A stretch of 58,851 bases of DNA from an uncultured Alphaproteobacteria bacterium (GTDB lineage: Bacteria > Pseudomonadota > Alphaproteobacteria > CAAHEQ01 > UBA3637), in the NCBI GenBank assembly GCA_949286245.1, contig CASECF010000060.1, positions 1 through 58,851 of the forward strand, written 5' to 3'. Numbering within the stretch: the stretch's first letter is position 1; each line of letters opens with the position of its first letter. The notes beneath the pieces were generated by a model. It did no database searches. It was not told the origin of the DNA and saw nothing but the letters and a program-made list of their open reading frames with translations. Position numbers and translations under genes: made by a program. Shown here piece by piece: positions 396-48,955 of the stretch.

Positions 396-1385
396 TCAAG
401 TGACTTCCGTAACGGCACGAATATTACCATCTCGATTAATTTGAACAACCCGTAATTTCTCTTTCATTTCTTTATATGTTTTTTCACGGTCCGTCGTGGG
501 ATAAGAATGTAAAATTCGACCAATAAACGCTTTGTAGGCGGCATCCGGATTTTCCGCATGAATAGTTGCAAAACAGTTATCATGACCCGAACCCATCAGC
601 TCCCAAATAGCCCCAGCATTGGACGTTGAAATTTCACCTCCGATAATAGCATCCGGTGTAAACCGAACAGCAAGGTCAATCACACGCTTATAATCAAATG
701 CATTCGTTAGTTCCGTACGAGGGAGAACAATATGGACACGATTCTTATGAGGAACGATCAACTCTCTCGTATCCTCAATCGTTAAAATTCTTTTATGTGA
801 ATCCAGCAGTTTAATCAAGTTATTTAAAAATGTTGTTTTTCCCGTTGCGGTAGCACCACTGACCAAAACGTGATCTCCCCGTTTAATCGATAAAAGCAAT
901 CGGTCAAAAGGATCATCCGGATCTTCCACCTGTTTTAATTTGTTGATCGGTCTCAATCGCTCTCCCTGATCAAATCCGAAATCTTTAAAGGAAATTGGTA
1001 AATCTTCCTTATAGACACGAATAGCCATAGCGATTCCACCTGTCAAATCATTATTATCATACATAACATTTCGACCAGCAATTCCCGAAAAACGGTGTCC
1101 TCCGGGGAGTGTTGCATAAACAACGGGAGTTCCTTGTTCCGGATCAAATGCATAATCATAGGTGTTAGCAATAATATAGAGGATATTATTGAGATATTCT
1201 CTGGTTAACTTAGGTTCTTCATAATAATGCCACGGATATGTATGGCGACCTCTCAAACGAAGCCAAATACCTCCCGGAGAATTAACAGCGACTTCTTCCA
1301 CATTGTCCTGATTATACCAGTATGATAAGGGGCGCAACGCCGACTCTAAAACTCGGTAAGTATCGGTTATAGACAACTCCCCCAT
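396..1385 (-). CDS. virB11: Type IV secretion traffic ATPase VirB11
   Basis: 329 aa. Walker A is VSGATATGKTTFLN, and the Asp/His boxes are ILTIEDTRE and GHDNCFATIHA. It lies 13 nt downstream of virB10 with an SD (gagaaagggtg). Confidence 0.9.
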   Translation of the reverse strand: MGELSITDTYRVLESALRPLSYWYNQDNVEEVAVNSPGGIWLRLRGRHTYPWHYYEEPKLTREYLNNILYIIANTYDYAFDPEQGTPVVYATLPGGHRFSGIAGRNVMYDNNDLTGGIAMAIRVYKEDLPISFKDFGFDQGERLRPINKLKQVEDPDDPFDRLLLSIKRGDHVLVSGATATGKTTFLNNLIKLLDSHKRILTIEDTRELIVPHKNRVHIVLPRTELTNAFDYKRVIDLAVRFTPDAIIGGEISTSNAGAIWELMGSGHDNCFATIHAENPDAAYKAFIGRILHSYPTTDREKTYKEMKEKLRVVQINRDGNIRAVTEVT

Positions 1386-8035: not shown

Positions 8036-9844
8036 TTATTGAACCCGTACAACTGAACATGTAAAACCACGGCGTCCCAACTTTTGACACAAAGTATCAG
8101 CCGTTTTTACATTTTTCATCGGGCCTATCCGCAACCGGAATAATTCACGCACATCCCCGTCAGCCGTCGCATCAACGGAATAATATGGTTCATATCCCTT
8201 TAACAAATCTTGGTTTTTAGAATAGATGTTATCCCAAATTGTCTCGAGTTCTGCCATACTGGCATGCGTTCCCAATTCAACGGAAATTGTCTCTTTATCA
8301 CTGATAAACGTTTTAACATCAGAAGAAACCGAACTCGAAGAAGATTTTGAAGTCGTAATTTGGTTCATCACACCGACAATCCCGGAAGAAGCCGACGGAG
8401 AATTCTTAACCTCTGTCGGAATTCCCTGCATGGGAGCCATCTCCTGTGTATAAACAAATGACGGATACGAATTAACAAACTCAGCATTAATTCCGGCAGC
8501 TCCACCCGACATCATGTCCGGCATAATCATCTGTCCGTCCATTGTCATGGGGAATTGAGCTTTAAACGTTCCATCCGCATTCATTCCCTCGGTGTAGGCA
8601 CTCGTAGACTGAGAAGATAAAAGAGAAGATTGAGACGTAGCAGAGGATCCCGCCACCATTGAAGAAGCAGACCCACCCATTACATCAGAAGCTCCATTCA
8701 TCCCATTTGAATCCGCATTATTTTGAGTCGACGGTTTTCCACTCCATGAAGCCGATTGCCCCTGAGACCCACTATAATCAATATACTCTAATCCGGAAGC
8801 CGGATCACGTCTGAGCTTCAGACAAATAATTTTTTTACCATTTCTCAAGACCAAATCCCCGATAGCTTCCACAACAATTAAACGACTATTAGGGCCTCTT
8901 GTTCTAAAGCCGACAGGAACCTCCGTATCCTGAACAATCAAGTTAACAATCGGACGCTGTGTCATCGTCAATGCTTTCGGCCCCATATCGATATATGTAA
9001 AGATATTATCACGCCATACATTCTCCGGAGCCATATCAACATCTGCCGGATTTGGCAAGTACATATCGATATCGAATCGGAAACTCTCCGGATCTACAGG
9101 TATGGATTTTAGCCAATCTTTCGGTCCTGTTGAAGCCGTATTTAAGCCGATTTGAGGATTCTGGGAGCCACGACCAGCCCATCCCGGGGCAGCCGATCCA
9201 CTTACTGATGTATTGGAAGAGGCCGTGATCGTGGCACCATTAAAATTTCCAAGTTTTCCTCCGTTTTCAACCGGTGTATATTTTGGACCGACCAAAACAT
9301 CGACAACCGATTGCGTAATTTTATCCGTATTATATGTTTCGCTTCTCAGATAAAATACATATCGATTCCCAGACCGACCAAAAACAATCATATTGCTGTC
9401 CACACCGATATAAGAAGGATCCGCATAAACAAGGAGAGAATTCGGAGCAGCAATTTCACCACCGAAAGATTCGGGAGAACCAATATGAACCTTTTCAATC
9501 AACTCCCAGGTTGGGAAGTTAATAAGTGTCATCATCCCCTCTCGTAAACGAATGGGCAAAACAACATCAGGAGACCATAAATATTTCGAATACCCCGGTT
9601 TGGTCTGTCCTTCTCCTAAATGCGACAAAGGATCATTCCAAGCTTTTTGTTGCATTCCCAAAGAATGAATGTAATTCAAATTCACCTGATCAAACTCTCC
9701 GGTTGTTTGAGCTATGGCATCACTGAGCTGACCCGCCTCCACATCGGCCGGCAACATTTGTTGAGCTTGTGCCGCAACACTTAATAAAATAACTAAGCTT
9801 GTCGCTCCCAACCAATTTAATTTACGAAATTTTCCTTTTAACAT
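8036..9844 (-). CDS. virB9: VirB9/TrbG/CagX-family T4SS outer-membrane core protein with a long C-terminal extension ending in a SPOR domain
   Basis: 602 aa. The signal peptide ends ..SVAAQAQ. The VirB9 N-domain reads LPIRLREGMMTLINFP...IVFGRSGNRYVFYL. The C-domain reads FRFDIDMY..VWRDNIFTYIDMG..RLIVVEAIGDLVLRNGKKIICLK. A Ser-rich linker follows, then ISVELGTHASMAELE...FRLRIGPMKNVKTADTLCQKLGRRGFTCSVVRV, which is SPOR-like. Confidence 0.85.
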   Translation of the reverse strand: MLKGKFRKLNWLGATSLVILLSVAAQAQQMLPADVEAGQLSDAIAQTTGEFDQVNLNYIHSLGMQQKAWNDPLSHLGEGQTKPGYSKYLWSPDVVLPIRLREGMMTLINFPTWELIEKVHIGSPESFGGEIAAPNSLLVYADPSYIGVDSNMIVFGRSGNRYVFYLRSETYNTDKITQSVVDVLVGPKYTPVENGGKLGNFNGATITASSNTSVSGSAAPGWAGRGSQNPQIGLNTASTGPKDWLKSIPVDPESFRFDIDMYLPNPADVDMAPENVWRDNIFTYIDMGPKALTMTQRPIVNLIVQDTEVPVGFRTRGPNSRLIVVEAIGDLVLRNGKKIICLKLRRDPASGLEYIDYSGSQGQSASWSGKPSTQNNADSNGMNGASDVMGGSASSMVAGSSATSQSSLLSSQSTSAYTEGMNADGTFKAQFPMTMDGQMIMPDMMSGGAAGINAEFVNSYPSFVYTQEMAPMQGIPTEVKNSPSASSGIVGVMNQITTSKSSSSSVSSDVKTFISDKETISVELGTHASMAELETIWDNIYSKNQDLLKGYEPYYSVDATADGDVRELFRLRIGPMKNVKTADTLCQKLGRRGFTCSVVRVQ

Positions 9845-9956: not shown

Positions 9957-10664
9957 CTAAGACGGCAAGGCCTGAATTCCAAACTTCAAGACAGTAAATC
10001 CAAGTGGATTTTTCAAGCGCTGATCCCATGTTAGTCCTGGTCTTGTCGGGCGGAAGGCCACCTGCATAACAACCAACCATTTTGACTTTGTTGGCTGACT
10101 ATCCCCCTGTTTCATATCCGTCAATTCTATTTCGGCACGCCACACATTAACGCCCTCTCCTTCAGAACGATACGGAGAAACAACCAAAATTTTAACATTT
10201 CGTGTTAATCCCTCTTTACGCGCCTGTTCCAAAAGGAGATTCGCTGTACGAGCAAACTCCTGAAAGACAGAAGACTCACTCATCCAGTTTACGCTTCCGT
10301 CAATCCCCCACCGACGTTCCAATTCCGGGATATTGGTCCCAACTGTTAATCGAGACAACAAATACTGTCTGATAAAAGACTCTGTCAACAGATTCATATC
10401 CAACTCAGCATAATTGGGTCTTTGAATACTAATGATTTGTTGATCTTTATCCATTGTACTCAAATAAAAGGGTTGGACCCGAACAATCGGGAGAAGAGAA
10501 AATAACGCACTTAACAGGATAAGAGTTGCCAAAAATGAAACGACACAAACCAGTGCAAACGTTCGAGCCATCCAAAGATATCGCCGTTCTTTAACAGCTT
10601 CTTCGGAGATATCGCTCTCCATACCGTTCATTTCCTCTTCTGAATGAGTCGCATCAACAGTCAT
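9957..10664 (-). CDS. virB8: T4SS inner-membrane protein VirB8 (copy proximal to virB9)
   Basis: 235 aa. It is bitopic, with a TM helix (FALVCVVSFLATLILLSALFSLL) followed by an NTF2-like periplasmic domain ending ..RLKNPLGFTVLKFG. Confidence 0.85.
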   Translation of the reverse strand: MTVDATHSEEEMNGMESDISEEAVKERRYLWMARTFALVCVVSFLATLILLSALFSLLPIVRVQPFYLSTMDKDQQIISIQRPNYAELDMNLLTESFIRQYLLSRLTVGTNIPELERRWGIDGSVNWMSESSVFQEFARTANLLLEQARKEGLTRNVKILVVSPYRSEGEGVNVWRAEIELTDMKQGDSQPTKSKWLVVMQVAFRPTRPGLTWDQRLKNPLGFTVLKFGIQALPS

Positions 10665-10685: not shown

Positions 10686-10862
10686 TTAAGAAATCCAAGA
10701 AGCTGTTTTAGGAGCTCTTTTTAATTCCAAACAGGCGCACGGAGATTTCTTCAGCTCAGAATAATCCGGACCAATACCAACCGTTTCTTTTTCATAAATG
10801 GAACCACAGGCCACCAGGGCCAAAACAGCCAAGACACTCAATAAGAACAAATGTTTTTTCAT
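10686..10862 (-). CDS. Small lipoprotein, VirB7-like by size, lipobox and position; not in the ORF track (58 aa)
   Basis: ATG at 10860-10862 is preceded by aaaggaaacctt (SD). Translation: MKKHLFLLSVLAVLALVACGSIYEKETVGIGPDYSELKKSPCACLELKRAPKTASWIS, stop at 10686-10688. The lipobox is L-V-A-C. It sits between the two virB8 genes. Confidence 0.6.
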   Translation of the reverse strand: MKKHLFLLSVLAVLALVACGSIYEKETVGIGPDYSELKKSPCACLELKRAPKTASWIS

Positions 10863-10942: not shown

Positions 10943-11584
10943 TTATTGTTTTTTCTTTGACTCGTTATATTTTACGACGGTTAACCCGTATGGATTCGCA
11001 AAATTAGTTCTAAAAACACGTCTAGAGGGATCATGTACGACTTCAATGATAGACACTTTACTTTCCCGTGAAATCGTACTTCCGAGGAGACGGACTACAT
11101 CAAACTCGACCGTAAACGTATTTCCCAATCGACTGATTCGTTGAATATCAACACTTTCCGTATAAGAGAGATTCCGAAGTTGAGTCACCTCCTCGCCGAA
11201 ACCAGCTAAAAATTGTCGATAAACATCCGCATTCGAAAGCAACCACACAGGTCCACCGACACCTATACGGCGATTAAATTCCGTTTGATCAGCAAATAAC
11301 GATAATCTCATTTCCAAATAATATCGGATCAGCATTTCATCCAACAATTTTTTATCACCGATATCGGAAGATAAAGGCTCTGCCTGAATCAATTGATTAG
11401 AGCTCATCGGAGAAGTCAATATTTGAGAAATAACCTTTAAGCGAGGAGCCATTTGAAGTAATGTCAAAATAATCAATAAATTAAATGCAATAATAATTGC
11501 CGCAACAATCATCCAAAACTTTGCCAAAAACTCGGCATTTCCTCTTTTTCCCAAAACACGTCGAGATAATTCTTCTTTGCTCAT
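10943..11584 (-). CDS. virB8: T4SS protein VirB8, second paralogue
   Basis: It has a TM helix (FWMIVAAIIIAFNLLIILTLL) and a VirB8-type C-terminus (..NFANPYGLTVVKYN). The likely start is MSKEELS at 11584, which forms an ATGA overlap with the stop of the upstream gene. The track ORF extends to 11611. Confidence 0.8.
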   Translation of the reverse strand: MSKEELSRRVLGKRGNAEFLAKFWMIVAAIIIAFNLLIILTLLQMAPRLKVISQILTSPMSSNQLIQAEPLSSDIGDKKLLDEMLIRYYLEMRLSLFADQTEFNRRIGVGGPVWLLSNADVYRQFLAGFGEEVTQLRNLSYTESVDIQRISRLGNTFTVEFDVVRLLGSTISRESKVSIIEVVHDPSRRVFRTNFANPYGLTVVKYNESKKKQ

Positions 11585-13212
11585 TGAATATATGTTCCTC
11601 CATTTAAGCACATATCATCCAATTTTTTTCTTTGGGTTTTATTGATTCTTTTATTAAATAACTCTATCTCCTTTTTTAAGGCTTCCGTTGCGGCTGCCTC
11701 TTTCATCAATTGATCAATTTGACCCGCATTTTGGCGAGATAAAGTGACATGTCCGTCCGAATCCGTTTTAAGAGCCTCAATCAACTGACGAGCCTGATAT
11801 ACACGCGAAGATTGTATCGCATCAGCCGTTTTTACATAAAGCGAACGGTCTTTTGTTAATTGATCCAAAACATCTTCCTGACCTTGCGGTGAAATAGATA
11901 AAACACTTTCTGCGGATAATGTTTTTTGCTCATCCTCCGAAGAAGAACTTGGAAGCTTACTCATCTCTTCCTCTGCCTGTTTTAAATATATCTCTTTCTG
12001 CTCACGAATAGCTTTTTTAACCTGATTATACTGTGTTTCATCCAGCAAATTCGGTGTTTCCATAGCCAACCCATGTGAAGCGAGTCTGGAATCCAACACA
12101 CTCATCAAATTATTTTCTTCTGCCTGAGTGATTTCGACCAACTTTTGAGCCGTACTTCTTTCTTTTTTTATTCCCTGATAAACATTCAATCGATTATCTT
12201 GAAGAGAGGCATCCTGATTACGAACACTCTCCTTAAGGCGCAATGATTTTCCGATAAAATCTTGAGCCATTTCTCCTGTCGGATTAAAATCTTCAAAATT
12301 ACTCTTCATAAACTTCTGCCACGGTTCCGGCCATTCCGGAAAGACTTGTCTTGTTTCTTCCGGATCACCGATATATTTCACAATTTCATCGGCTGGCGGA
12401 AGAGGTTTGGGGGGTACCGGTGGCATTTTAAAGGATGCCGGCATTCCCATCAATTTTTTGGGGGCTTGGGCACTCATTTTTTTCAGGTAATCGGCATGCG
12501 CTTTAATCAATTCATCATACTGTGTATAGTCGTACTTCTGATCACCAATCTGGGGGAGTACATCCGAAGAAACGCCAAAATAAGTATTTATTTGGGCATA
12601 AAAATCATTATACTCTTTATCATAAAGATACTTTTGATCTTTCCAAAGCGGAAAAACCGACGATTTTCCGGCTCCCCCCTTTGGAGTTCCCCATTTTTCG
12701 GGATTGGCATACACATCCGTTAAAATATTTTTTCCCAGTGTCCATGTGGCATTTTGTTCAATAATTGTTTGATCATCCGGTGTCACGTTCGGCAACTGAT
12801 CTGGATCATACCGTTGTGCCGAATTCAAGAAAACAGCCAGTTGTTTTTCCTGAGCATCGTAAGTCTTTGTCATTTTTTCCCAAACATCCTCTGGATTTTG
12901 GAAATACTTTCCGAGTCGTCGAATATTGCAAGTTGTCATATCATCGAATCGTTTATTCTGATAATCTAATTGTTCTTTTGCATCCGCTTGCGTCTGTTGA
13001 AATTGACGAAAAGAAGGAAGAGACACCATTAAATTATGTAAATCCAAGGCTTTCAATAACGGAATTTGATAATTACTTTGCGTCTCCGCTTGAGTTTGAG
13101 TTGCCGGAATTCGTTCTACTTTAACAAACGGAGATTCAGCCAAGGCAACCGATGACAACAAAAGCGATGAAACCGTAAGCATAAAAAAAGATCTGTATTC
13201 CATGAACATCAT
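11581..13212 (-). CDS. Secreted protein of unknown function, T4SS-linked (543 aa)
   Basis: The signal peptide is ..LLLSSVALA|ESP. It has a central PPVPPKPLPP motif and a coiled-coil-like, Glu/Gln/Lys-rich C-terminal half. It is translationally coupled to virB8. Confidence 0.6.
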   Translation of the reverse strand: MMFMEYRSFFMLTVSSLLLSSVALAESPFVKVERIPATQTQAETQSNYQIPLLKALDLHNLMVSLPSFRQFQQTQADAKEQLDYQNKRFDDMTTCNIRRLGKYFQNPEDVWEKMTKTYDAQEKQLAVFLNSAQRYDPDQLPNVTPDDQTIIEQNATWTLGKNILTDVYANPEKWGTPKGGAGKSSVFPLWKDQKYLYDKEYNDFYAQINTYFGVSSDVLPQIGDQKYDYTQYDELIKAHADYLKKMSAQAPKKLMGMPASFKMPPVPPKPLPPADEIVKYIGDPEETRQVFPEWPEPWQKFMKSNFEDFNPTGEMAQDFIGKSLRLKESVRNQDASLQDNRLNVYQGIKKERSTAQKLVEITQAEENNLMSVLDSRLASHGLAMETPNLLDETQYNQVKKAIREQKEIYLKQAEEEMSKLPSSSSEDEQKTLSAESVLSISPQGQEDVLDQLTKDRSLYVKTADAIQSSRVYQARQLIEALKTDSDGHVTLSRQNAGQIDQLMKEAAATEALKKEIELFNKRINKTQRKKLDDMCLNGGTYIQ

Positions 13213-13214
13213 CC

Positions 13215-14288
13215 TTATTCAAATGTTTCTGTCAATGTTTTAATGTTTCTGATTGAAGGAATCGAAGCCAGTTGTTGATCCGCTTGCAACTCTAAACTAA
13301 ACGCCCAAATTTGTTGCAACAACATTGTCAACTGATATTCGACCAAACGTACTGCTATATTTTCCTTAATGGCCGTCACTTTATCTGTTCCTTGCAATTG
13401 TGTAGAATCCAAGATAACTCCCTCATACTTGTTAGGCGTACTGACAGACAGAGTATCTTCCAGTTCTTCCACCATTTTAGCTAATTTCTCAAGTTGATCT
13501 TTTAGAACCAAGACACGTGCCATATTTTTAATAACAGCTTGTTGCTCTTCATACATTCGCATTTGACGGGCATATGTTTCATTTTTCAGACCACCCTTTC
13601 CTTCTCTCTCAATTAAATTTTGAGCATTCTCCGACATATTTTTATCGACGGTATCTGCGGTGCTATTAATACCTTGATCAGAAACAGATCCAACAATATT
13701 CCCTGCTGTTTGAGAAGCCTGAACACCCGCTTGTGATGTTGTTCCCGTTGTTGTTCCAGTGGTTGTTGATATCCCGCCGGTCGTTCCGACATTTCCGGAT
13801 GTTGAGGAGGATCCACTTGTTGATCCGGAATTAGCAGATGTTGAAGAACCCGTTCCACCGCTCGATGTAGCTTGTTGTTGATCCTCTCTCCAATATTTAT
13901 TTACAAAAGCCTCTCCCTGACTTTCAATGACGTCACGCATATTCTCCGTTCCCTGATCAACATAATTGGAAATAGAGGAGGTTACGACCGATCCATCCGG
14001 TAAAAAAGGAATATCCGGCAATTTTGATTTAACATCCTGAACACTCGGCAACATGTTAATCATATCCTTTTGGGTCCCCTCAAGAACAGATTGGATGTCC
14101 GTCAATTTTTCCGTAGCCTGCAATTGATATTGTTTAACATAATCTTGAGCCTGCTTGGAAATATCCGAAATCGGTGTTCCACTTCCAGCCTCTAAAATAC
14201 ATTTGAGTGTGGTACAAACAGCCTCACCTCTCAGAGGGAACAAGAGAAGTAAGAATGCCGGTAATATAAAATACGTTTTTTTTATCAT
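13215..14288 (-). CDS. Secreted protein, member of a T4SS-linked paralogue set (357 aa)
   Basis: A signal peptide (..FPLRGEA) is followed by a helical N-segment, an S/G/T-rich core (aa ~140-196, TSSGGTGSSTSANSGSTSGSSSTSGNVGTTGGISTTTGTTTGTT) and a helical C-terminal module. Confidence 0.6.
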   Translation of the reverse strand: MIKKTYFILPAFLLLLFPLRGEAVCTTLKCILEAGSGTPISDISKQAQDYVKQYQLQATEKLTDIQSVLEGTQKDMINMLPSVQDVKSKLPDIPFLPDGSVVTSSISNYVDQGTENMRDVIESQGEAFVNKYWREDQQQATSSGGTGSSTSANSGSTSGSSSTSGNVGTTGGISTTTGTTTGTTSQAGVQASQTAGNIVGSVSDQGINSTADTVDKNMSENAQNLIEREGKGGLKNETYARQMRMYEEQQAVIKNMARVLVLKDQLEKLAKMVEELEDTLSVSTPNKYEGVILDSTQLQGTDKVTAIKENIAVRLVEYQLTMLLQQIWAFSLELQADQQLASIPSIRNIKTLTETFE

Positions 14289-14300
14289 AAAACCCCTCCT

Positions 14301-15596
14301 TTACTTCGGTTCTTCCGGTTTTGCCATCAATTCAAGAGGCTGTGCCAAAAGCATTTGTGTCGTTAAAACTTCCGCATTGGCAATTCCGATTCCGATCAAT
14401 GCAACCGTTTGCTTAATTCGAGCCAAAGAAGCCTTTGTATTAATTTGGATATCCTCAATCTGGTTACAGCCGTTTGTCGGCGCTCCCGTAATTGATTCGC
14501 TATCTGTCTTTAATTTCGACCGAATCCCCGTACTTAAGGATAAAACTTTTGTTGCCACTTCATTTAAATATTGAGATCGCTTCCAAGACATTGCATTTAA
14601 TTTATCAGAAGTTGGATTTTTTTCTGTTAAAAAGAACTCTTTTTGAGCAAAACTTCTCGCTGTTTGAAAATCTTTTTGAGGCGGAGCAAATTTTGATTCA
14701 TCCGCTTTTTTCAATATTTCTTCCTCGACATAATCATATGCATTACTCTCGACTGCCGTATAATTTTTTGTCTGGCCATCCGATGAGATGGGAGTGCTTC
14801 CTTGGATTGTGCCGCACCCACCGTCTCCGGCCAGAGCCTCATTCTGTTTTAACACCTCTTCATCTGTCTGAAGTTGAGCTTCCTTATTGCTTTCTGTTTG
14901 AACTTGCTGTGCCTCAGTCTTTACCGTACCTTCACTATCTGTTGTCGGAATACCCGTTGAGACAGCAGAAAACTCCATCGGTCCCATTTCTTCCAAAACC
15001 GCTGAAAAGTCTTTATAAACATCAGAAATCGGAACCGCTTCTTCTATACTATCCATAACGCCGGAAGGATCCAAACCATCCAACGAACCGGAAATAGTAT
15101 CCGTCACACCCCCTACAACACCCCCAATCGTATTTGAAACGGAGCCCGTCACACTGCCAACAGCACCACTAACACCCCCTACAACACCCCCGATCGTATT
15201 TGAAACGGAGCCCGTCACACTGCCAACAGCGCCACTAACGCCCCCTACAACACCCCCGATCGTATTTGAAACGGAGCCCGTCACACTATCAACAGCACCA
15301 CTAACGCCCCCTACAACACCCCCGATCGTATTTGAAACGGAACCCGTCACACTATCAACAGCTCCACTAACAACTTTATCCGCAACACCGGAAACATTTC
15401 CAACGACTCCGCTAACACTGTCCACAGTACTTCCCACCTGTTGAACGGTATCTTGAACTGTTCCTAATGTATCCGATCCCGGTAAAAATAAATCAAACGG
15501 TTTATCCTCTATAGGAGTGATAGCAGCAAGGGATCCTCCTGATAAAACTGAAAAGGATACAACCGATACCGCCAAAAAAAGAAGATGTTTTTTCAT
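14301..15596 (-). CDS. Secreted tandem-repeat protein, member of the T4SS-linked set (431 aa)
   Basis: A signal peptide (..SGGSLA|A) is followed by four copies of a 22-aa repeat, VSGAV[DG]SVTGSVSNTIGGVVGG. An acidic region and a helical C-terminal module follow. Confidence 0.6.
   Translation of the reverse strand: MKKHLLFLAVSVVSFSVLSGGSLAAITPIEDKPFDLFLPGSDTLGTVQDTVQQVGSTVDSVSGVVGNVSGVADKVVSGAVDSVTGSVSNTIGGVVGGVSGAVDSVTGSVSNTIGGVVGGVSGAVGSVTGSVSNTIGGVVGGVSGAVGSVTGSVSNTIGGVVGGVTDTISGSLDGLDPSGVMDSIEEAVPISDVYKDFSAVLEEMGPMEFSAVSTGIPTTDSEGTVKTEAQQVQTESNKEAQLQTDEEVLKQNEALAGDGGCGTIQGSTPISSDGQTKNYTAVESNAYDYVEEEILKKADESKFAPPQKDFQTARSFAQKEFFLTEKNPTSDKLNAMSWKRSQYLNEVATKVLSLSTGIRSKLKTDSESITGAPTNGCNQIEDIQINTKASLARIKQTVALIGIGIANAEVLTTQMLLAQPLELMAKPEEPK
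15109..15372 (-). repeat. 4 x 66-bp near-identical tandem repeat (in frame, coding)
   Basis: Units start at 15109, 15175, 15241 and 15307. They differ at only a few positions (for example ctgcc versus ctatc). Confidence 0.9.
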
Positions 15597-15613
15597 ATTC
15601 TATCCCTTCCTTT

Positions 15614-16351
15614 CTAAAATAATCCCTTCTGATCTGTTGAAGCAGATGTTTTCTCACTATCTACACGAGCTCCCTGAAGCGCCTTCAGTGCATCAATTCG
15701 AGCTCTTTCCGAAGCTAACACATTCAATTCCGTCATCTTTCCGGCCATTTGTATGGTTAAAACACCTAATCCTTTATACAAATCAATAATTGATTCTCTT
15801 TTTTCCAAATCTTCTTTTAATTTCTTAAAATCCTCGGTTGTTTTTTCAGAGTTTTGTTGCGAAATCGTAGCAACAGCTTTTGCATGCAATAAGTTCAGCA
15901 CATAATATTTTTGCTGATACGCCAACTCTCCTGGTTTATCTTGATCCTTGTTAGACTGTCCCTCAACTCTCTCTGTTGTGGCTATCATCGTCTTGGGATC
16001 AAAATAAATCAATTCTCTCAATTTTTCTTCTACTTTAACAACATCGGGATCCTTTTCCTCCAGCAAGCTTTTTAATTCTTTTGGAACAATCGGCAAAATT
16101 TCTTCGTTCACAAGGATACTTGCTTGCTCTTCTACCGTTTCACTTTTTTGAACCCCAGGCATCCCGATATTTTGTAATTTCTGTCGCGCATCTTCCACCG
16201 CTTGGAGATCTGACAATGTCGTATTAACCGTTGCCGAGATTTGTTCAATCGATTGCGCAACCCCTGGAATATCGAATGTCGAATTAGCCCACCCCAACAT
16301 GGGTAAAATGAGAAGCCCCCCAACAATTAATATATTTTGTCCTAACTTCAT
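15614..16351 (-). CDS. Secreted helical protein, possibly VirB5/TrbJ-like (245 aa)
   Basis: The signal peptide is ..PMLGWA|N. The size and all-helical, Gln/Glu/Lys-rich composition resemble VirB5/TrbJ. The N-terminal FDIPGVAQSIEQISATVNTTLSDLQ recalls the VirB5/TrbJ N-motif. The assignment is tentative. Confidence 0.45.
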   Translation of the reverse strand: MKLGQNILIVGGLLILPMLGWANSTFDIPGVAQSIEQISATVNTTLSDLQAVEDARQKLQNIGMPGVQKSETVEEQASILVNEEILPIVPKELKSLLEEKDPDVVKVEEKLRELIYFDPKTMIATTERVEGQSNKDQDKPGELAYQQKYYVLNLLHAKAVATISQQNSEKTTEDFKKLKEDLEKRESIIDLYKGLGVLTIQMAGKMTELNVLASERARIDALKALQGARVDSEKTSASTDQKGLF

Positions 16352-16360
16352 TTTAACCTC

Positions 16361-17299
16361 CTAAAATTGAGATCCTGCTTTTTGATTGGCCAAAACACCT
16401 TCCAGATTCAAAGATCCCGATTTTGTAATTAATAATTTATTCCAGAAATCCAAGCCGGAAATCGTGATAAACGAGTTCCATTGAATGGCCGCTCTTTCAT
16501 CTTGAGCCGTTTCTAATTGTTTTTCAGCCTCTTTTACCCAATCTAAATATTTTGGCGCCGTAGCTTGATGAACCAACGAGACAGCCGTTGAATTTGTTGC
16601 GGTTGACTTAATGGCATTTTCCAAATTTTGAACAATCGTACTAAATTCGCCAATCGAAGAGGTCTTCCCCGCTTTAAATTGCAGATTTTGTTGTATTAAC
16701 TTTTTATTTTGTTCCGCATTTTTATACTTATCCAAATTACCATAATTTGTTGATCCGGTCATCCCCATCAACGAAGAACCATCCACGACACCGGAACCTG
16801 TTACTACCGTCCCACCATCTACCGCTTGTGTTCCCGTCTGAGTAGCGGAAGAAACAGAATTTCCAACAACCGTTTCAGTACCTGCAACCGACGCTCCGGA
16901 AGAAACTGATCCGGTCGGAGAAGTAGCCGATGAAACCGTTGAAGGGTTCGATGACGAAGCCCCTCCGCCGGAGTTTCTATTGGAAGAAGCACTCGATCCA
17001 TCCGGTTTTTTCCCGTTAATGGCGTTCCAAAGAGAATCACTCATTTGACGTCCTTTTGAAATAGCAGAGCTCTGAAGCCCCTTTAACTGTGATGAGACAA
17101 TATTTCCCAAAGATAAATTCTCCCATTGAGACAATAAATTTTGATCCAATCCTACTTGTTTTTGGAGCTCTGTTTTAACATTATCCAAGACTTTCTCAAC
17201 ACTCAACTGCGGACCGGTAATAAAGGCCGTTCCCTGTGCGAGAACCGAAGACGTAAAGAGGCAAGAAAACCCGATTATTAAAAATTTTTTTAACATCAT
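16361..17299 (-). CDS. Secreted protein, member of the T4SS-linked set (312 aa)
   Basis: A signal peptide (..SSVLA|Q) is followed by an S/G/T-rich core (aa ~100-176) and a helical C-terminal module. Confidence 0.6.
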   Translation of the reverse strand: MMLKKFLIIGFSCLFTSSVLAQGTAFITGPQLSVEKVLDNVKTELQKQVGLDQNLLSQWENLSLGNIVSSQLKGLQSSAISKGRQMSDSLWNAINGKKPDGSSASSNRNSGGGASSSNPSTVSSATSPTGSVSSGASVAGTETVVGNSVSSATQTGTQAVDGGTVVTGSGVVDGSSLMGMTGSTNYGNLDKYKNAEQNKKLIQQNLQFKAGKTSSIGEFSTIVQNLENAIKSTATNSTAVSLVHQATAPKYLDWVKEAEKQLETAQDERAAIQWNSFITISGLDFWNKLLITKSGSLNLEGVLANQKAGSQF

Positions 17300-18246
17300 T
17301 TTAATTCCTCCCCAAAAGCTTTAGCTGACGTTGCATCTTGCAACACAATAGCGGAATTCAAACCAGCAGATGTTGCCTCAGATGCCAACAACAAATTCAT
17401 ATTTGCATTCATTCCCAGTGTCATTCCCGTCCACACCTGAATATCCTCCCGAATATTGATCGGTTTTTTAATTAATTCGACTGCCTCTTCTTTTGTTTTG
17501 TTATATTCGGTTGAAACAGCCATAATATTCAATGAATCAGACATAGCAGAACTACCGGCATCATAAATCACCTGAACCAAATTATCATACACTTTCTTCA
17601 ATGATTCTTGAGAGGCGGCATTTCCTCCTTTTTCATTACTGATAACAAAATTTTTATTCAGAAGATTTTTAGCTGCGGCCGGATTTCCCAATTGATCTTC
17701 CGATAAGCCATAAGGAGTTAAATCAACAAGGGGTTTTTGAGGCGTTCCTACCTCTGCAACATTTCCAAATAAATAACCGGTCGGAGACACATTGGAGGCT
17801 GTTTCACTGGTGACAAATCCCTCTCCCGGAACGGAAGAACCAGCCCCTGTTGTTGGGCTCTCAACGGACGTGTCCCCTGTACTTGTTCCGCCAGAAGAAC
17901 CCCCTGATGAGGAACTGCCGGAAGAACTACTCGACGATCCGCCTCCCGATGAAGAACCACTCGACGAAGAACTACCCGACGATCCGCCTCCCGATGAAGC
18001 GACTTTTTTACCACCGGAAGTATCACCGGAAGGCCCCATAATGAGATTTTGAAGTGTTTCTTCGGAAAGAGTGGCAAGATTATTGATAACATCTGCTATT
18101 AACGTAGACAAAACGGCAATAATCATCGGCTGAATATTATCAATGTATTTAACCGGTTGCCCCGCATAACCCTCTTTAGCTGAGGTTAGCAAAAGGCTTG
18201 TCCCTAAAAGAAATATCCCGATTCCTGACAAAAATTGTTTCCTCAT
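17296..18246 (-). CDS. Secreted protein, member of the T4SS-linked set (316 aa)
   Basis: After the signal peptide there is a nearly pure Ser/Gly tract at aa 84-120 (SSGGGSSGSSSSSGSSSGGGSSSSSSGSSSSGGSSGG) and a helical C-terminal module. It has a 4-nt overlap with the next gene. Confidence 0.6.
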   Translation of the reverse strand: MRKQFLSGIGIFLLGTSLLLTSAKEGYAGQPVKYIDNIQPMIIAVLSTLIADVINNLATLSEETLQNLIMGPSGDTSGGKKVASSGGGSSGSSSSSGSSSGGGSSSSSSGSSSSGGSSGGTSTGDTSVESPTTGAGSSVPGEGFVTSETASNVSPTGYLFGNVAEVGTPQKPLVDLTPYGLSEDQLGNPAAAKNLLNKNFVISNEKGGNAASQESLKKVYDNLVQVIYDAGSSAMSDSLNIMAVSTEYNKTKEEAVELIKKPINIREDIQVWTGMTLGMNANMNLLLASEATSAGLNSAIVLQDATSAKAFGEELK

Positions 18247-18282: not shown

Positions 18283-19146
18283 TTAACATAAATTACCGAT
18301 CATACAAGTTTTTTTTTCACATATGGAAATAAGGTTTTGAAAAATCATACTGACCGTCATGGGGCCAACCCCTCCCGGAACCGGAGTAATTGCGCTGACG
18401 ATTCCCATGAGATCTTCCGCACAAGCATCTCCGACTATTTTACCATCCGGTGTTCGTGATATACCGACATCGATCACAATAGCTCCCGGCTTCACAAATT
18501 CTCTTTTAATCAATTGAGGATGTCCGGTCGCCGAAACAATAATATCTGCACTTTTACAATGCTCCGATAAATCTTTTGTTTGAGAATGTGCTTGTATCAA
18601 TGTACATCCTGCATCTAACAACAATTGTCCCAACGGCTTTCCGACCAAACGCGACCGCCCGACAACAATTGCATTGAGACCGGAAAAATCAGAAACAACC
18701 GTTTTTAGCAGTGTCATACAAGCTAGAGGGGTACACGGAATAATATGGGGCTGTCCCACAAATAAATATCCCAAGTTTACACTTGAAAGTCCATCAACAT
18801 CCTTACGGGGATCAATTGTATCTATAATTTTATAGGAATCGAATGGAAACGGCAAAGGTAATTGAACCAAAATTCCATCGATGAGCGGATTTTCATTTAA
18901 TTCTTTGATAAAAGAACAAAGAGAATCTTCTGTCATAACGGGAGACAAATGATAGAATTTAACACTGACACCGAGCCTTTCCGCATACTTTCTTTTGTGT
19001 TTGATGTAAATCAAACTGGCCGGATTATCTCCAACCAAAATAACGGCCAGACAGGGGGGACGAGAAAATTTTTTTATTTTTTCTTTCATCTGATAACAAA
19101 GCTCTTCAGCCTGTTTTTTCCCATCAATTAAGACCGTTGACACCAT
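18283..19146 (-). CDS. folD: Bifunctional methylenetetrahydrofolate dehydrogenase/cyclohydrolase FolD
   Basis: VLIDGKKQAEE..., ILVGDNPAS.IY...K, GILVQLPLP and VVGRS.LVGKPL are the typical FolD layout. The ATG at 19146 has an SD (aaaggaa). The track ORF starts at a GTG at 19161. Confidence 0.85.
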   Translation of the reverse strand: MVSTVLIDGKKQAEELCYQMKEKIKKFSRPPCLAVILVGDNPASLIYIKHKRKYAERLGVSVKFYHLSPVMTEDSLCSFIKELNENPLIDGILVQLPLPFPFDSYKIIDTIDPRKDVDGLSSVNLGYLFVGQPHIIPCTPLACMTLLKTVVSDFSGLNAIVVGRSRLVGKPLGQLLLDAGCTLIQAHSQTKDLSEHCKSADIIVSATGHPQLIKREFVKPGAIVIDVGISRTPDGKIVGDACAEDLMGIVSAITPVPGGVGPMTVSMIFQNLISICEKKTCMIGNLC

Positions 19147-19157
19147 AATAATTCCTT

Positions 19158-20330
19158 TCACTTATACTCAACAACGACAAAACGTTTGGCATTTTCCAAA
19201 ATTTTATCGGACATATGTTCCAACCTTTCCAATTCTATTTGAGTTCGGATTTCATCATCAGACGGAAGAAGATTCTTTTGAGACACGGAACACTTCATGA
19301 AGAAAACATTTGCCCCATTCATTTGGAGGGGGCCTATCACTGTATTGATAGCAGCCGGAGACAATAATTCTTTTAATTCAGGTGGCAATTGATCAGGAGA
19401 GATCATTCCTTTTTGAATGGATTCCGGAATAGCTTCCTTGTGAGCAAAATCCATAAAATCCCGACAAGAATGAAGATCACCGACGATTGTCGGCATAAGA
19501 GTGACCGTTTTATCAAGCGTTAACGCTTGTTGAGCCAGCTCCCAAATCTGAATTGTATCACTTGTCAAGGCCTTCTTTTTATCCAACATAGCCAAAATTA
19601 AAAAGCCATTTTTTGTTTCGATTGGGCGCGATAATTGACCGGGGATCATCTGCTCCAAAATAGGTTGAACAACCGCTTCGTAATGATTCTTTTTAACCCA
19701 ACCGATCTGTCCGCCACGAGAAGCGGAAGGGGCTTTTGAATACTGGCGAGCAGCTTGATCAAACGCAATTTTTCCGGAACGAATTTCTTTTTCACACCGT
19801 AAAGCTTCTGCCTCGTTGGGAAGTAATATTTCTGCCAATAAATATCCTTCTTCTCTCAAACTCTTCCGTATTTGGTTTTTTCTTGCTTTGATTTCGGCAG
19901 GTTGTACGGGTTGAATATTTTGTTTTTGGCGTTGCATCAGTTGTAGCCACATGAGATCCGAACGAACTTGATCTTTCAAAAAATCAAGTGGCACATTATT
20001 TTGTTTAAGAACACGAGCTAATTGTCCCTTTTTCATTCCATTTTGTTGTTCCAGATGAGCAATCGCATTTTGAATATCTTCATCTCGAACGATAATTCCA
20101 TTTTTTTGAGCATATTGAACTTTAATTTTTTCATTGATAAGAGTGTTCAAGATTTGCTTTTTCATTTGATTATTGAATATATAGTTTTCGCTTTTTTGTA
20201 AATTCATCAATCGAGTCCGCACATCAACATCGAATGATGAGATCGGTTCATCGTTAACTGTTGCGATAATTTCACCGGCGCAAGAAACACTGCTCCACAT
20301 AAAAAGAAGCAAACAAATAACATATTTCAT
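19158..20330 (-). CDS. surA: Periplasmic chaperone/peptidyl-prolyl isomerase, SurA-like
   Basis: It has a signal peptide, a SurA N-domain and one parvulin domain (..SRGGQIGWVKKNH...GQLSRPIETKNGFLILAML). It follows lptD, as is usual in alphaproteobacteria. Confidence 0.75.
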   Translation of the reverse strand: MKYVICLLLFMWSSVSCAGEIIATVNDEPISSFDVDVRTRLMNLQKSENYIFNNQMKKQILNTLINEKIKVQYAQKNGIIVRDEDIQNAIAHLEQQNGMKKGQLARVLKQNNVPLDFLKDQVRSDLMWLQLMQRQKQNIQPVQPAEIKARKNQIRKSLREEGYLLAEILLPNEAEALRCEKEIRSGKIAFDQAARQYSKAPSASRGGQIGWVKKNHYEAVVQPILEQMIPGQLSRPIETKNGFLILAMLDKKKALTSDTIQIWELAQQALTLDKTVTLMPTIVGDLHSCRDFMDFAHKEAIPESIQKGMISPDQLPPELKELLSPAAINTVIGPLQMNGANVFFMKCSVSQKNLLPSDDEIRTQIELERLEHMSDKILENAKRFVVVEYK

Positions 20331-23300
20331 TACATACCCCCCAAAGATTTCAAAATAAATTTAACGGTCATCGATGTTCCACCGCTATAGTCACGATCAC
20401 TGGTAAAAGACCGTTCTAAATCAAATGCGATTGCAACACACTCATTATCATATTGTGTAATGAGACCCGCCTCAACAGGGCCTCCGTCTTTAGCCAAATC
20501 ATAGCGATAATAACCGGAAACAGACCAATTTTTTGAAAACTTAGAAGATCCGAAAAAGAGTAATTCCTCTCGAGATGAATAGTAGTTATCTGCGATTTGA
20601 ACCGGTTTTAAATAAACATAATCAATCCCTAAGCGCAAAGGATCCGATCCGCCTGATAATGTGATTTCATTTTTTTTAGGTTGCATATTTCGCTCATCTA
20701 AACGGAAGCGATAAGCTAAAGAGATGGCGTGATAATTTACTTGAACTCGCCCGACGTAATCAGATGCATTCGAATCGGCATTACCCATAAGAGCATTCAT
20801 CTCATCATCATCCGTCAATCGGTAAGATTGACCAAACATAGTCGAGATAGACCGATCATTGGTATCATATAAAGACCACTGCAATCCATAATTAACCCTT
20901 GTTCCTGTTTCAACACGATCATATCCCGCAAACCGATTTCTGGAAAAAAGATTGGTATCATCAAAATCAAAATCAATGCTATCAACATCCGGAATTTTAT
21001 CATTATTTCCACTATTGGGAGCCGAAACCAACATAACAATCGGTTCTAAAACCTGACTGGTATTTTCGGTAGACATAGCCATCGGATAGCTCATTTTAAC
21101 GGATCCAATCGGATAGATACGTCCCGTCGTATATGTATCATCTGTTTTCTGTTCTCCGAACGCATATTCTCCCGTATCGATCTGATATCCATCCGCACGA
21201 ACCGTTCCGATAATATCAAAGGCCGCCCCCCATGTGCTGACATAAGGTAAATGAAGTCCTTGAGTCACGGACAATCGGTTAGATTTAAAGCGTTGTCTGT
21301 TTTGATAAATAGCCGAATCAACCTCTGTAAAAGCATACAATCCATTATCCGTAAGCGGATCTGTGTTTACTCTATAAAACATCATCGGAATAATAATCGG
21401 GATTGAATCACTGGAAACACGATCTTGCAAACTTTGAAACGATAACCCCTGAACGGCAAAATAATTTTGTGTTCCAAATCGTTCTGCTGCAATATATGAT
21501 CTTAAAAAAGAGCGGGAATCATCAATACCCGGAATACTGTATCGTCTAAAATAGGTGTCACTGGATGTTCTGAAATACTGTCCCTGAATACGCCATAAAT
21601 CCGAAACATCATACCGAAAATCAGCTTTGATATGACCTTGCTTTTTATCATCATCATTATCCCGCGTTCCGCTGGCCTGAACATTCAAAAATCCCTCTTT
21701 ATACAGGCCCTTGTAATCAGCAATTATAAGGGGGTCATGCGTCGGAGAAAACGTCGGCGTTAAAAGTAAATTTTGATTATCTGACAAATCTACAAAAAAA
21801 GGAGTTGTAATTCCGCCCTTCATTTCCTCTCCGTGTGACAAACTGGGAGACAAAAATCCTGTTTTTCTCTTCACCGTAAAATCAGGTGTTTGCAAATACG
21901 GAAAATAAAAAATCGGAATATCTTTAACTTCTAAAAAAGAATTTTTATATGTCATTGTTTTATCAACGGCATCATGTTTAACATCGTTTGATCTTAAAGA
22001 CCAAAGAGGGGCTGTCCCCTCACAAAAATCACAAGGGGTATATGTCACATCTTTTAAGTAAAGAACCGTTCCGGCATGCGTACGTTTCAAACGAGATGCC
22101 GTTATATGTGTCCCATCGACTAATTTCATAATCATGGCTCCGGACACAGCCTCTTTCATATCGCCCGATAAAGTTAATTCTTGTGTTTCTGTTGTTGTTC
22201 CGTCCGGTATTGTTAAGACAACATTTCCTTGAGCCATCATTTGATTTTTTTGACGGTTATAAATCAATTTATCTGCTTTTAAAATTGTTTTTTCCTGTAT
22301 GGCAACAACATCTCCAGAAGCGATAACCGTATCATTTTTTTTATCATAAAAAACCGTATCGGATTCAAAATCGACAGGCTTGTCCTTATCCACGGCATGT
22401 TCGAAATCTGCCTTCACTTGAGCAATCGCCGTTGAAGCAATTAAAGAAGTAATTAAGACAATCAAAATCATTTCAATTCGTACTCCCTTGATTTTGACTG
22501 AATAGCCTCGTATCATAATCAAATACAAAACAATGATCGGTAAAAACACATTAACCGCCATCAAAGGTAAAAAGACCAAATTTTTACCGGAAATATTTTC
22601 AAACGCCAACGCCAGAGACTGAATGATCAAGGCCAATACGACAACCAAATTAATTCTGCCCATTTGACCACGACGATTGTAGTGAGCCGAGAGAACACCG
22701 AACATAGCTAAAAAGGCAAACGTAAAATTATAAAGCGGCTGTAAAATACGTTTTAAAGCTTCAACCTTCATTTTTCGATAAACAACTTCGTTTTCGGCAT
22801 CTTTCGGTTGTGATAAAATAAGCGTTTTCAAATCATATTCCCCGACATCACTGGATCTTGTTTCTCCCTCATTCTTTTTATCATTAAACCACATTGTGTA
22901 CTGATCAAATTTTAAAACAGAAAATTGTTTTGTCTTAGGGTTTAATTCTTGGCGTACACCTTCTTGGAAAATAACCCGAACACCTTTTTCTTCCTGAAGA
23001 ACAACCCCACCTTTTGCGATGAGAACAGATGTCTTTTCGGGATCTTTTGTTTCATAAGCCATCACGCCTTTGACGGAACCGTCCGGCAATCGTTCTTTAA
23101 CATAAAGGGTCAATCCGTTTTTAAAAGAATTGAACTGCCCTTCTTGCAAAAGTAAATGGGACAAATCATTTTTAACCTGCCATTTCATTTCACGAAGAGA
23201 AGTAGTCGCCTCGGGGACAAGAACCAACGTCAACACATATCCCAGAATCGTCAAAGCAAAAGCAAACATCAACGCTGGTTTCATAATTTGTTTCGGAGAC

Positions 23301-23581
23301 ATACCGATTGCCTGCATAACCATGAGTTCTTTATCAGATTGCATCCGAGAAAAAACAAACAAAACAACAGCAAACAAAGCTAACGGCGACAACACTTGCA
23401 TAAAATTCGGTAAAACCAGAAATGTCATCTTTAAAAAGATTCGTACGGGAACTCCGTTGGTGACGATCATATCAATCATTTTTAAGGATTGTGTCAACCA
23501 CACCAAAACGGTCATACTCGCCAAAACCAAGACGAAGCCGACAAAAATTTGTTTCAAGATATATTTGTTTAAAAGTTTCAT
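20330..23581 (-). CDS. lptD: Single 1,083-aa ORF: an LptF/LptG-family LPS-export permease (aa 1-~365) fused in frame to LptD/OstA (aa ~371-1083)
   Basis: The N-terminal part is a YjgP/YjgQ permease (MKLLNKYILKQIF..., 6 TM, periplasmic beta-jellyroll insert). From M371 it reads MILIVLITSLIASTAIA|QVK, which is signal-peptide-like. The LptD OstA N-domain follows (DTVFYDKKNDTVIASGDVVAIQ...), then the beta-barrel (..FYFPYLQTPDFTVKRKTGFLSPS..). Confidence 0.85.
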   Translation of the reverse strand: MKLLNKYILKQIFVGFVLVLASMTVLVWLTQSLKMIDMIVTNGVPVRIFLKMTFLVLPNFMQVLSPLALFAVVLFVFSRMQSDKELMVMQAIGMSPKQIMKPALMFAFALTILGYVLTLVLVPEATTSLREMKWQVKNDLSHLLLQEGQFNSFKNGLTLYVKERLPDGSVKGVMAYETKDPEKTSVLIAKGGVVLQEEKGVRVIFQEGVRQELNPKTKQFSVLKFDQYTMWFNDKKNEGETRSSDVGEYDLKTLILSQPKDAENEVVYRKMKVEALKRILQPLYNFTFAFLAMFGVLSAHYNRRGQMGRINLVVVLALIIQSLALAFENISGKNLVFLPLMAVNVFLPIIVLYLIMIRGYSVKIKGVRIEMILIVLITSLIASTAIAQVKADFEHAVDKDKPVDFESDTVFYDKKNDTVIASGDVVAIQEKTILKADKLIYNRQKNQMMAQGNVVLTIPDGTTTETQELTLSGDMKEAVSGAMIMKLVDGTHITASRLKRTHAGTVLYLKDVTYTPCDFCEGTAPLWSLRSNDVKHDAVDKTMTYKNSFLEVKDIPIFYFPYLQTPDFTVKRKTGFLSPSLSHGEEMKGGITTPFFVDLSDNQNLLLTPTFSPTHDPLIIADYKGLYKEGFLNVQASGTRDNDDDKKQGHIKADFRYDVSDLWRIQGQYFRTSSDTYFRRYSIPGIDDSRSFLRSYIAAERFGTQNYFAVQGLSFQSLQDRVSSDSIPIIIPMMFYRVNTDPLTDNGLYAFTEVDSAIYQNRQRFKSNRLSVTQGLHLPYVSTWGAAFDIIGTVRADGYQIDTGEYAFGEQKTDDTYTTGRIYPIGSVKMSYPMAMSTENTSQVLEPIVMLVSAPNSGNNDKIPDVDSIDFDFDDTNLFSRNRFAGYDRVETGTRVNYGLQWSLYDTNDRSISTMFGQSYRLTDDDEMNALMGNADSNASDYVGRVQVNYHAISLAYRFRLDERNMQPKKNEITLSGGSDPLRLGIDYVYLKPVQIADNYYSSREELLFFGSSKFSKNWSVSGYYRYDLAKDGGPVEAGLITQYDNECVAIAFDLERSFTSDRDYSGGTSMTVKFILKSLGGM

Positions 23582-26178: not shown

Positions 26179-26244
26179 AAGTCTTAAAAATTGGTATGAT
26201 GCGAGGAGTGTACAATTTTATTGGTTATTTGTCAAGAACAGAAC

Positions 26245-26877
26245 ATGAAACAACGGTTATTGGAACCAAAGATTATTTTGCTTGTCGGCATGATGGGAGT
26301 CGGGAAGACCAGTTTGGGTCGGATTTTATCGAAGCGTCTGAACTTACCTTTCATTGATAGTGACAAGGAAATTGAACGGATTACGGGTTTTACTATTTCG
26401 GATTTATTCGCTCGGTACGGGGAGGAAGAGTTTCGAACAGGAGAAGAAAAAATCATGGCCCGTCTTTTATCCGGAAAGCCTTGCGTCTTATCCTCCGGTG
26501 GCGGGGCATTTTTATCGGAAAAAACGAGAGAAGTAGCCTCAAGATCAGCCATATCCATCTGGCTCAAAGCAGAAACGGAGATTATATCAAAAAGGACGCA
26601 GGGACGCACGCACAGACCATTTGTTCCGGCTGCAGACAACCAACGAGCCATCGAACGTCTTGTTCGAGAACGATATCCGGTTTATGCAGAAGCGGACATT
26701 ACGGTTGAATCATTTAACGAGCCGCCCTTTAAAACAGCTAATCGTGTTTTAAAGGAGTTGGAAAGAAGGCAGGTAATTAAACCAATACCAACAAAGCCAA
26801 GTGCTTCATCGAATCGGGCAACAAACAAACGATGTAAATTTTATAAATCATCTTCCCCTAAAAAGAGGGCAAATTAA
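26245..26877 (+). CDS. aroK: Shikimate kinase AroK with a basic C-terminal tail
   Basis: It has Walker A LVGMMGVGKTSLG and the FIDSD motif. The core is about 170 aa and is followed by a Lys/Ser/Pro-rich tail of about 40 aa. ATG at 26245 is preferred over the TTG at 26221. Confidence 0.85.
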   Translation: MKQRLLEPKIILLVGMMGVGKTSLGRILSKRLNLPFIDSDKEIERITGFTISDLFARYGEEEFRTGEEKIMARLLSGKPCVLSSGGGAFLSEKTREVASRSAISIWLKAETEIISKRTQGRTHRPFVPAADNQRAIERLVRERYPVYAEADITVESFNEPPFKTANRVLKELERRQVIKPIPTKPSASSNRATNKRCKFYKSSSPKKRAN

Positions 26878-26884
26878 GTTTTAA

Positions 26885-28147: not shown

Positions 28148-28340
28148 GATAAAAACTTATATTGAGACCGAATGAAAATATAATCTCAAAAATATTTTTC
28201 ATCCTTTGCTGTGGGAACCCTCATTTTATCATATACTCGTAAAATACACATATATGGCCGGCATTATTCAAAAACACTCTTGATTTTCTAAAAAGATCCC
28301 TGTACGATGGTCTATGCTATTTAGAAAGAAAGGATAGACA

Positions 28341-28808: not shown

Positions 28809-28818
28809 GGTTTGGGTC

Positions 28819-48867: not shown

Positions 48868-48955
48868 TTTACACTCCTTTTTTTTATAAAGACATTTCAG
48901 TTTTAACAACTATCCCTTGTCCTGTCAATGATTATTTTAAAATTTTCTTTTAAAA

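Follow-up and report, generated by a model that had tools for sequence, protein, structure and literature searches.

A contig of 58,851 nucleotides from an uncultured alphaproteobacterium (GenBank assembly GCA_949286245.1, contig CASECF010000060.1; hereafter the window) carries a block of six open reading frames (ORFs) on the minus strand, flanked by folD and by virB8a, a gene of a vir cluster encoding a type IV secretion system (T4SS). They encode proteins of 316, 312, 245, 431, 357 and 543 aa, named here by length or, in transcription order, by letter (A, p316; B, p312; C, p245; D, p431; E, p357; F, p543). Coordinates and lengths are exactly those of the initial annotation, which had been made from the sequence of the window and also gave a range of −4 to +17 nt for the gaps within the block. 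Measured downstream from folD, the gaps are 36 nt (folD/p316) and then −4, 9, 17, 12 and 2 nt. Two ATGA overlaps had been described as well. One is the p316/p312 junction at 17296, while the other, between the p543 stop and virB8a at 11581-11584, holds provided that virB8a starts at its internal ATG, a codon with GGAGGA 14 nt upstream. Clear GGAG-type Shine-Dalgarno sites accompany five of the six block genes and this internal ATG. The public gene call for p543 starts 3 codons downstream of the ORF start used here. Promoter-like and terminator-like sites between 9500 and 19500 are not commoner than in shuffled sequence and thus offer no argument for or against internal transcription signals; judging by the spacing, co-transcription of the block with the vir genes is plausible.

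Hydrophobicity analysis found a single N-terminal, signal-like hydrophobic segment in each of the six proteins, in line with the signal peptides and lack of further transmembrane helices proposed earlier. p316 has a second, weaker stretch at residues 40-61 (Kyte-Doolittle 1.8); with D and NN among its residues, this stretch probably forms an amphipathic helix.

Conservation of the block and its linkage to virB8

How widely is this arrangement kept? A scan of GTDB species genomes yielded 22 loci, with sample names pointing to ruminant and human guts, and a metagenome scan added just 5 further loci. Twenty of the 22 are labelled Alphaproteobacteria bacterium; the labels of the other two, L006 and L021 (L-numbers denote the relatives' loci), read uncultured Lactobacillales and are taken to be mis-binning. 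Among 5.8 billion proteins p543 has about 25 homologs, all derived from metagenomes or metagenome-assembled genomes (MAGs), and protein and genome searches alike recovered the family solely from genomes of the clade that bears this T4SS.

About 17 loci of different MAG species retain A-B-C-D-E-F-virB8 in this order, with p543 orthologs 24 to 93% identical. Well-covered loci read xerD, lptFG-lptD, surA, folD, five to seven unknown genes, a p543 homolog, virB8, a small ORF, virB8, virB9 and a giant virB10, and BLAST clustering places the unknown genes in positional ortholog groups equal to A to F. The more distant loci are arranged differently. In L021, L023 and L029 the block keeps one virB8, and what follows is pheS/pheT, an outer membrane protein/hydrogenase or an opposite-strand resolvase; in L021 pta/ackA take the place of folD upstream. 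Together with L028, these loci have the block and a single virB8 separate from virB9-B11, which points to T4SS genes split into separate groups, virB8a moving together with the secreted proteins. Since virB8 is kept where folD or other vir genes are lost, the constant partner of the block is virB8 rather than folD or virB9-B11. This constancy is the strongest evidence for functional membership of the block in the secretion system. The conserved order, the virB8 linkage and the short gaps bear out a conserved, tightly packed unit tied to the vir genes.

Compared with a 93%-related MAG, the ordered parts of A to F are 84 to 95% identical, and surA and folD are 89 to 90% identical. Indels between the two occur exclusively in Ser/Gly/Thr tracts or repeats, meaning that the low-complexity cores described in the initial annotation do vary in length between close relatives. 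The 22-aa repeats of p431, encoded by a 66-nt × 4 tandem repeat at 15106-15372 (95% matches), lie in a region that has 69 additional residues in this MAG.

Domain relationships and searches against known families

The family is invisible when the proteins of the window are compared only pairwise with one another: BLASTP of all against all returned nothing but a p316/p312 match (26%, low complexity), and orthologs from the relatives were therefore needed. With these, hhalign of the C-terminal modules gave probabilities of 87% for A and B, 93% for A and B1, 90% for A and D and 97% for C and C2, reversed controls staying at or below 2% (B1, position-B orthologs of a second subclade; C2, position-C orthologs of another subclade; B2, used below, position-B orthologs of another subclade). 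An iterative hidden Markov model (HMM) search, seeded with A, B and D, was run against the 1204 ORFs of 60 aa or longer in all loci, with reversed copies as decoys. It converged on 74 to 76 members, none of them a decoy or a housekeeping ORF. Its choice in 13 loci was precisely the genes A, B, C and D, four in succession, and the p245 of the window had E = 4e-7 in the round preceding its inclusion.

The similarity extends beyond the modules in some members. Compared as mature proteins, C aligned with D at 91% hhalign probability and with B2 at 96% over about 190 to 207 columns, and residues ~215-422 of p431 align with the entire mature p245. The best-conserved core of the shared domain spans ~125 aa and its extent in p245 and p431 is about 200 aa, suggesting that the domain is roughly the whole mature p245. 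A to D are ~10 to 15% identical to each other and, as judged from the profile comparisons, represent old duplicates of a single new helical domain, fixed in number and order across the main clade. The initial annotation had proposed a diversified family with a similar helical C-terminal module, five proteins sharing one plan. The common module is indeed found in four of them (p316, p312, p245 and p431), while the N-terminal helices of the paralogs have no demonstrable homology and p357 is suggestive only. Collinear hhalign of p357 with the A-D module reaches a probability of 18 to 22% (reversed controls, 0.1 to 0.2%), and the iterative search never recruited it; p357 may be a fifth family member. 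p543 has no similarity to the A-D domain and is a separate orphan family, not part of the A-D family.

An AlphaFold2 model of p245 from 12 sequences was unusable (predicted local distance difference test [pLDDT], 43), and one from 49 sequences was used (pLDDT 74.3; predicted template modelling score, 0.56). The latter is all helical, with helices at residues 28-62, 91-97, 104-115, 120-126, 143-184 and 188-225. The predicted fold thus has one long helix at the N terminus, then three short ones, and at the C terminus a long helical hairpin, which has a pLDDT of ~90.

That none of the six belongs to a described family, as initially proposed, agrees with the searches. Pfam and NCBIfam gave nothing credible, whether in the six proteins of the window, in 74 block proteins, in 43 family representatives or in 13 p543 homologs, and sequence and profile searches of the PDB with the C and F families found nothing. 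One candidate for position A, the flagellar filament cap domain FliD_C (PF07195), was rejected: L013:6008-6784, from another subclade, reaches 24.2 bits where the cutoff is 25.4, neither its L022 ortholog nor any other has a match, and the score is probably due to helical or compositional similarity. When the C-family profile was run exhaustively with HMMER over 1.84 billion cluster representatives, it returned just 45 proteins at E ≤ 0.001, and a homolog search with the module profile returned 9 proteins only. The family came solely from metagenomic or MAG sequences; where an organism name is attached, it is Alphaproteobacteria bacterium and the source an animal gut. Foldseek comparison of the p245 model with BFVD gave nothing, and a literature search found no publication linking RF32 and type IV secretion. 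By sequence, the A-D domain and the p543 family make up at least two protein families not described before; lineage-specific T4SS accessory proteins are a known kind, whereas these two families appear to be new.

Some members carry additional features. The p357-type proteins have a conserved Cys-x2-4-Cys(-x-Cys) motif immediately past the signal peptide, and the p543-type proteins have two invariant cysteines, C95 and C535; these cysteines suggest disulfides, which would fit a periplasmic or extracellular location. In one subclade (L002:7119-8405 and L016:7017-8216), the p245-type protein reaches 399 to 428 aa through a Cys-rich C-terminal extension that is absent elsewhere. The D and E proteins of L006 (L006:7087-8730 and L006:8743-9771) end in a near-identical tail of 25 to 43 aa (...TGGPFDANNPAEPK), which lies outside the helical domain (BLASTP E about 1e-10 to 1e-12).

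Possible roles of the block proteins

What kind of secretion system adjoins the block? The window has the gene order of the rvh T4SS of Rickettsiales, virB8-virB7-virB8-virB9-virB10-virB11 with a duplicated virB8: Pfam identifies two VirB8 copies and CagX, a lipoprotein ORF lies between the virB8 copies, and TrbI is found in the relatives. As in rvh systems, virB2, virB3, virB4 and virB6 are not part of this cluster, which has no recognisable virB5. Unlike in rvh systems, VirB10 has 2202 aa, VirB9 bears a SPOR domain, and the six-gene block is without a counterpart reported for rvh. Searching PDB sequences by phmmer with both VirB8 copies found no relative, RvhB8 included, so the initial label "rvh-type" is apt as a description of gene order only. 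The parts of the window searched with Pfam hold housekeeping genes, indicating a chromosomal locus. Although rvh systems are without VirB5, Wolbachia builds pili, as seen by cryo-electron tomography, by a route stated as unresolved (bioRxiv 10.1101/2025.08.29.673095).

We lean towards the reading that the six genes encode clade-specific, Sec-exported accessory or surface subunits of this rvh-like chromosomal T4SS. All six products would be exported by Sec, would have no membrane anchor and would act in the periplasm or at the cell surface. A to D would present one all-helical domain, with p245 being nearly the domain alone and the others carrying Ser/Gly/Thr-rich or repeat spacers of variable length, and these flexible spacers could push the helical domains outward; p357 would have a similar layout and p543 would be a different, larger protein. 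Because of the tight packing into virB8a and the co-travel with a virB8 paralog, the most likely role would be structural: subunits that VirB8a helps to assemble onto the machine. Such subunits may form a periplasmic stalk or a surface or tip layer, as VirB5 or CagL/CagI/CagH do elsewhere. The VirB8 of Agrobacterium is an assembly factor handing VirB5 and VirB2 to the pilus, and it reportedly contacts both during pilus assembly. A VirB8 copy dedicated to the block proteins would fit such an assembly role. Export, localisation, assembly via VirB8a and a structural role are what we infer for the six products.

Could the four paralogs instead be extremely diverged true VirB5/TrbJ homologs, forming a pentameric stalk or pilus tip from four specialised copies? 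p245 had been likened to VirB5/TrbJ, and with its one hydrophobic segment at the N terminus it has the signal, size and solubility of a VirB5. Like VirB5/TraC/TrwJ/TrbJ (PF07996; 1R8I and 7O3V), it would be a Sec-exported, soluble and nearly all-helical protein in the range of ~220 to 250 aa with long N- and C-terminal helices, encoded within a T4SS cluster. The mature N terminus, "SFDIP...", is a similar polar motif just past the signal peptide that resembles the VirB5 start, "PVxDP/G". The order of its secondary structure (one long helix, then a small insert of helices and two further long ones) would suit an elongated bundle like that of VirB5, as a resemblance only, and recalls TraC, which is said to comprise a long helix, short helices and a long helical hairpin; the fold of TraC and TrwJ is a bundle of three helices with a small appendage.

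Profile and structure comparisons do not support this homology. Full-length hhalign of the 50-sequence C family with 11 annotated VirB5/TraC/TrwJ genes from plasmids reached 94%, but this was mostly an artefact of the signal peptides: trimming both sides reduced it to 8.3% (E 0.004, 50 columns; reversed control, 0.2%). A weak collinear signal of 8 to 11%, against 0.2 to 0.3% for reversed controls, does survive trimming, and the mature N terminus of p245 gave a 17-column, 2.9% alignment with VirB5. Neither PF07996 nor the TIGR VirB5 model matched any of about 130 proteins (six at E ≤ 1, 74 at E ≤ 0.01 and 43 at E ≤ 0.1). CagL is among the Foldseek matches of the p245 model (ranks 32 and 44; E about 4, TM 0.25 to 0.31), but TraC (1r8i) and TrwJ (7o3v), both in the PDB library, fall outside the 50 best matches, and none has E < 0.5. 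The genes also differ in arrangement. The block sits between folD and virB8 and not between virB4 and virB6, where the VirB5 gene lies; there are four deeply diverged paralogs in place of one gene, and three of them bear long low-complexity spacers. Homology between p245 and VirB5/TrbJ is hence unsupported, and common descent of the four paralogs with VirB5 is unlikely.

Slightly less likely again is that the block proteins are cargo, which Sec would export and the T4SS would then release from the periplasm, or merely co-regulated secreted or surface adhesins. A precedent exists in Bordetella pertussis, where the pertussis toxin subunits are encoded upstream of ptl and released from the periplasm by a T4SS. 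As in the ptx-ptl layout, whose T4SS is also without VirB5, several signal-peptide proteins lie directly upstream of and co-oriented with the secretion genes, and surface-exposed proteins typically have low-complexity tracts of Ser/Gly/Thr and repeats that vary in length. However, Pfam and NCBIfam searches of the block proteins revealed no toxin domains (AB5 subunits) and no enzyme domains, and the products are helical and low-complexity, unlike the pertussis toxin. The initial annotation had drawn a parallel to Bartonella Trw, in which trwJ, trwL and trwH likewise provide tandem copies of small secreted helical T4SS proteins. In Trw the copies arose recently, resemble one another and differ in number, whereas the block paralogs are deeply diverged, fixed at four and, with rates like those of surA and folD in their ordered domains, not fast-evolving, so a Trw-like amplification does not describe them. 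Four ancient paralogs kept in number and order over deep divergence, housekeeping-like rates and length-variable spacers fit structural parts of fixed stoichiometry better than Trw-type adhesins or cargo, and the tightest linkage of the block is with virB8, an assembly factor. It is very unlikely that the six are envelope proteins unrelated to secretion, for example, tied to lptD-surA outer-membrane biogenesis and adjacent to virB8 by accident, since the xerD-lptFG/lptD-surA-folD genes upstream in most loci and the lack of a functional domain connecting the proteins to the T4SS are outweighed by L021, where virB8 is still downstream of the block with pta/ackA upstream, by the persistence of virB8 in L021, L023 and L029 though virB9-B11 are gone, by the overlap of the p543 stop with the virB8a start and by the restriction of the family to the T4SS-bearing clade.

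Several points count against the block proteins being subunits of the secretion machine. Pfam, NCBIfam and PDB-sequence searches are all negative, Foldseek comparison of the p245 model with the PDB returned generic helical hairpins (best E = 0.5), and no sequence or experimental tie joins the block proteins to known T4SS components. Signal peptides were called from hydrophobicity only, co-transcription from gene spacing only, and the lptD-surA-folD synteny is kept almost as widely as the vir synteny. With Pfam, virB2, virB3, virB4 and virB6 were not seen in the examined part of the window (which excludes some 16 ORFs at 26221-30717 and 47746-58577). The lack of a recognised virB5 applies to the cluster.

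If the six are accessory or surface subunits of the T4SS, as we favour, the Cag system of Helicobacter pylori (CagL, CagI, CagH; CagM, Cag3) offers a comparison. Both have a very large repeat-rich VirB10 (CagY in Cag), a CagX-type VirB9 and several lineage-specific, signal-peptide-bearing, mostly helical proteins without homologs elsewhere, among which CagL is regarded as a VirB5 analog. The shared C-terminal tail of the L006 D and E proteins recalls the common C-terminal motif of CagH/CagI/CagL. Yet there is no detectable homology, the bacterial class and the gene order are different and the Foldseek match to CagL is non-significant, so the likeness to Cag in the giant VirB10, in the CagX-type VirB9 and in the additional helical proteins with signal peptides is one of analogy only. 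In a more specific and rather doubtful version, A to D, perhaps with p357 and p543, would join the dedicated VirB8a in a hetero-oligomeric structure from periplasm to surface, a stalk or tip of a kind not seen before, evolved separately from VirB5, that would replace VirB5, and possibly other pilus parts, around the 2200-aa VirB10.

An alphaproteobacterial lineage with rvh-like vir order thus carries six proteins, predicted to be exported, that are joined to a virB8 paralog; four of them form a family defined by a new helical domain. If the six are parts of the machine, this would be the third case, after Cag and Dot/Icm, of a T4SS enlarged by lineage-specific envelope subunits; two or more new protein families (A-D domain, p543) would be defined by such parts, and the proteins would be candidates for what a secretion system exposes at the surface in gut bacteria that are abundant in ruminants and humans yet uncultured. 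If not, they would still be a conserved, uncharacterised set of secreted proteins.

Feature coordinates and neighbouring genes

Table 1. Genes of the six-gene block and its flanks in the window
Feature	Position	Strand	Remarks
p316 (A)	17296..18246	-	signal-like N-terminus; Ser/Gly tract ~70-150; module residues 180-308 (DNA 17323-17709)
p312 (B)	16361..17299	-	signal-like N-terminus; Ser/Gly/Thr tract; module residues 186-311 (DNA 16367-16744)
p245 (C)	15614..16351	-	minimal family member; module residues 95-231 (DNA 15659-16069)
p431 (D)	14301..15596	-	N-terminal 22-aa x4 repeats; acidic/Thr-rich linker; C-terminal module residues 301-422 (DNA 14331-14696)
p357 (E)	13215..14288	-	signal-like N-terminus; Cys motif; Ser/Gly/Thr tract; conserved helical C-terminal ~110 aa
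p543 (F)	11581..13212	-	best-conserved member; orphan family; invariant C95, C535; Pro-rich centre with FPxWPEPW
virB8a	10943..11611	-	Pfam VirB8, E 3e-6; vir gene still attached to block in distant genomes
58-aa lipoprotein ORF (MKKHLFLLSVLAVLALVAC...)	10686..10862	-	lipobox LVAC; between virB8 copies; VirB7-like by position
virB8b	9957..10664	-	Pfam VirB8, E 4e-15
virB9/CagX	8036..9844	-	C-terminal SPOR domain
giant virB10, 2202 aa	1399..8007	-	TrbI domain at C-terminus in relatives
329-aa ORF, putative virB11	396..1385	-	position after virB10; P-loop judged by eye; no family search
folD	18283..19161	-	upstream housekeeping neighbour

Within the vir cluster, the place of the 58-aa lipoprotein ORF is taken in relatives by a small ORF of 58 to 69 aa. 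VirB10 contains about 1800 aa of Gly/Val/Asp-rich repeats and is comparable in size to CagY; its relatives have faint Bflower/DUF3659 matches ahead of the TrbI domain. The SPOR (peptidoglycan-binding) domain of VirB9/CagX follows Ser-rich linkers, and no VirB1-type transglycosylase is present in the vir cluster. Scans for Rfam families and tRNAs found nothing in the window. Upstream of folD, a 1083-aa ORF on the minus strand (20330-23581) is an apparent fusion of an LptF/LptG-type inner-membrane permease with LptD, a call made from counterparts of 1075 to 1090 aa that match PF03739 and PF04453; joining inner- and outer-membrane parts of lipopolysaccharide transport in one protein would be unusual.

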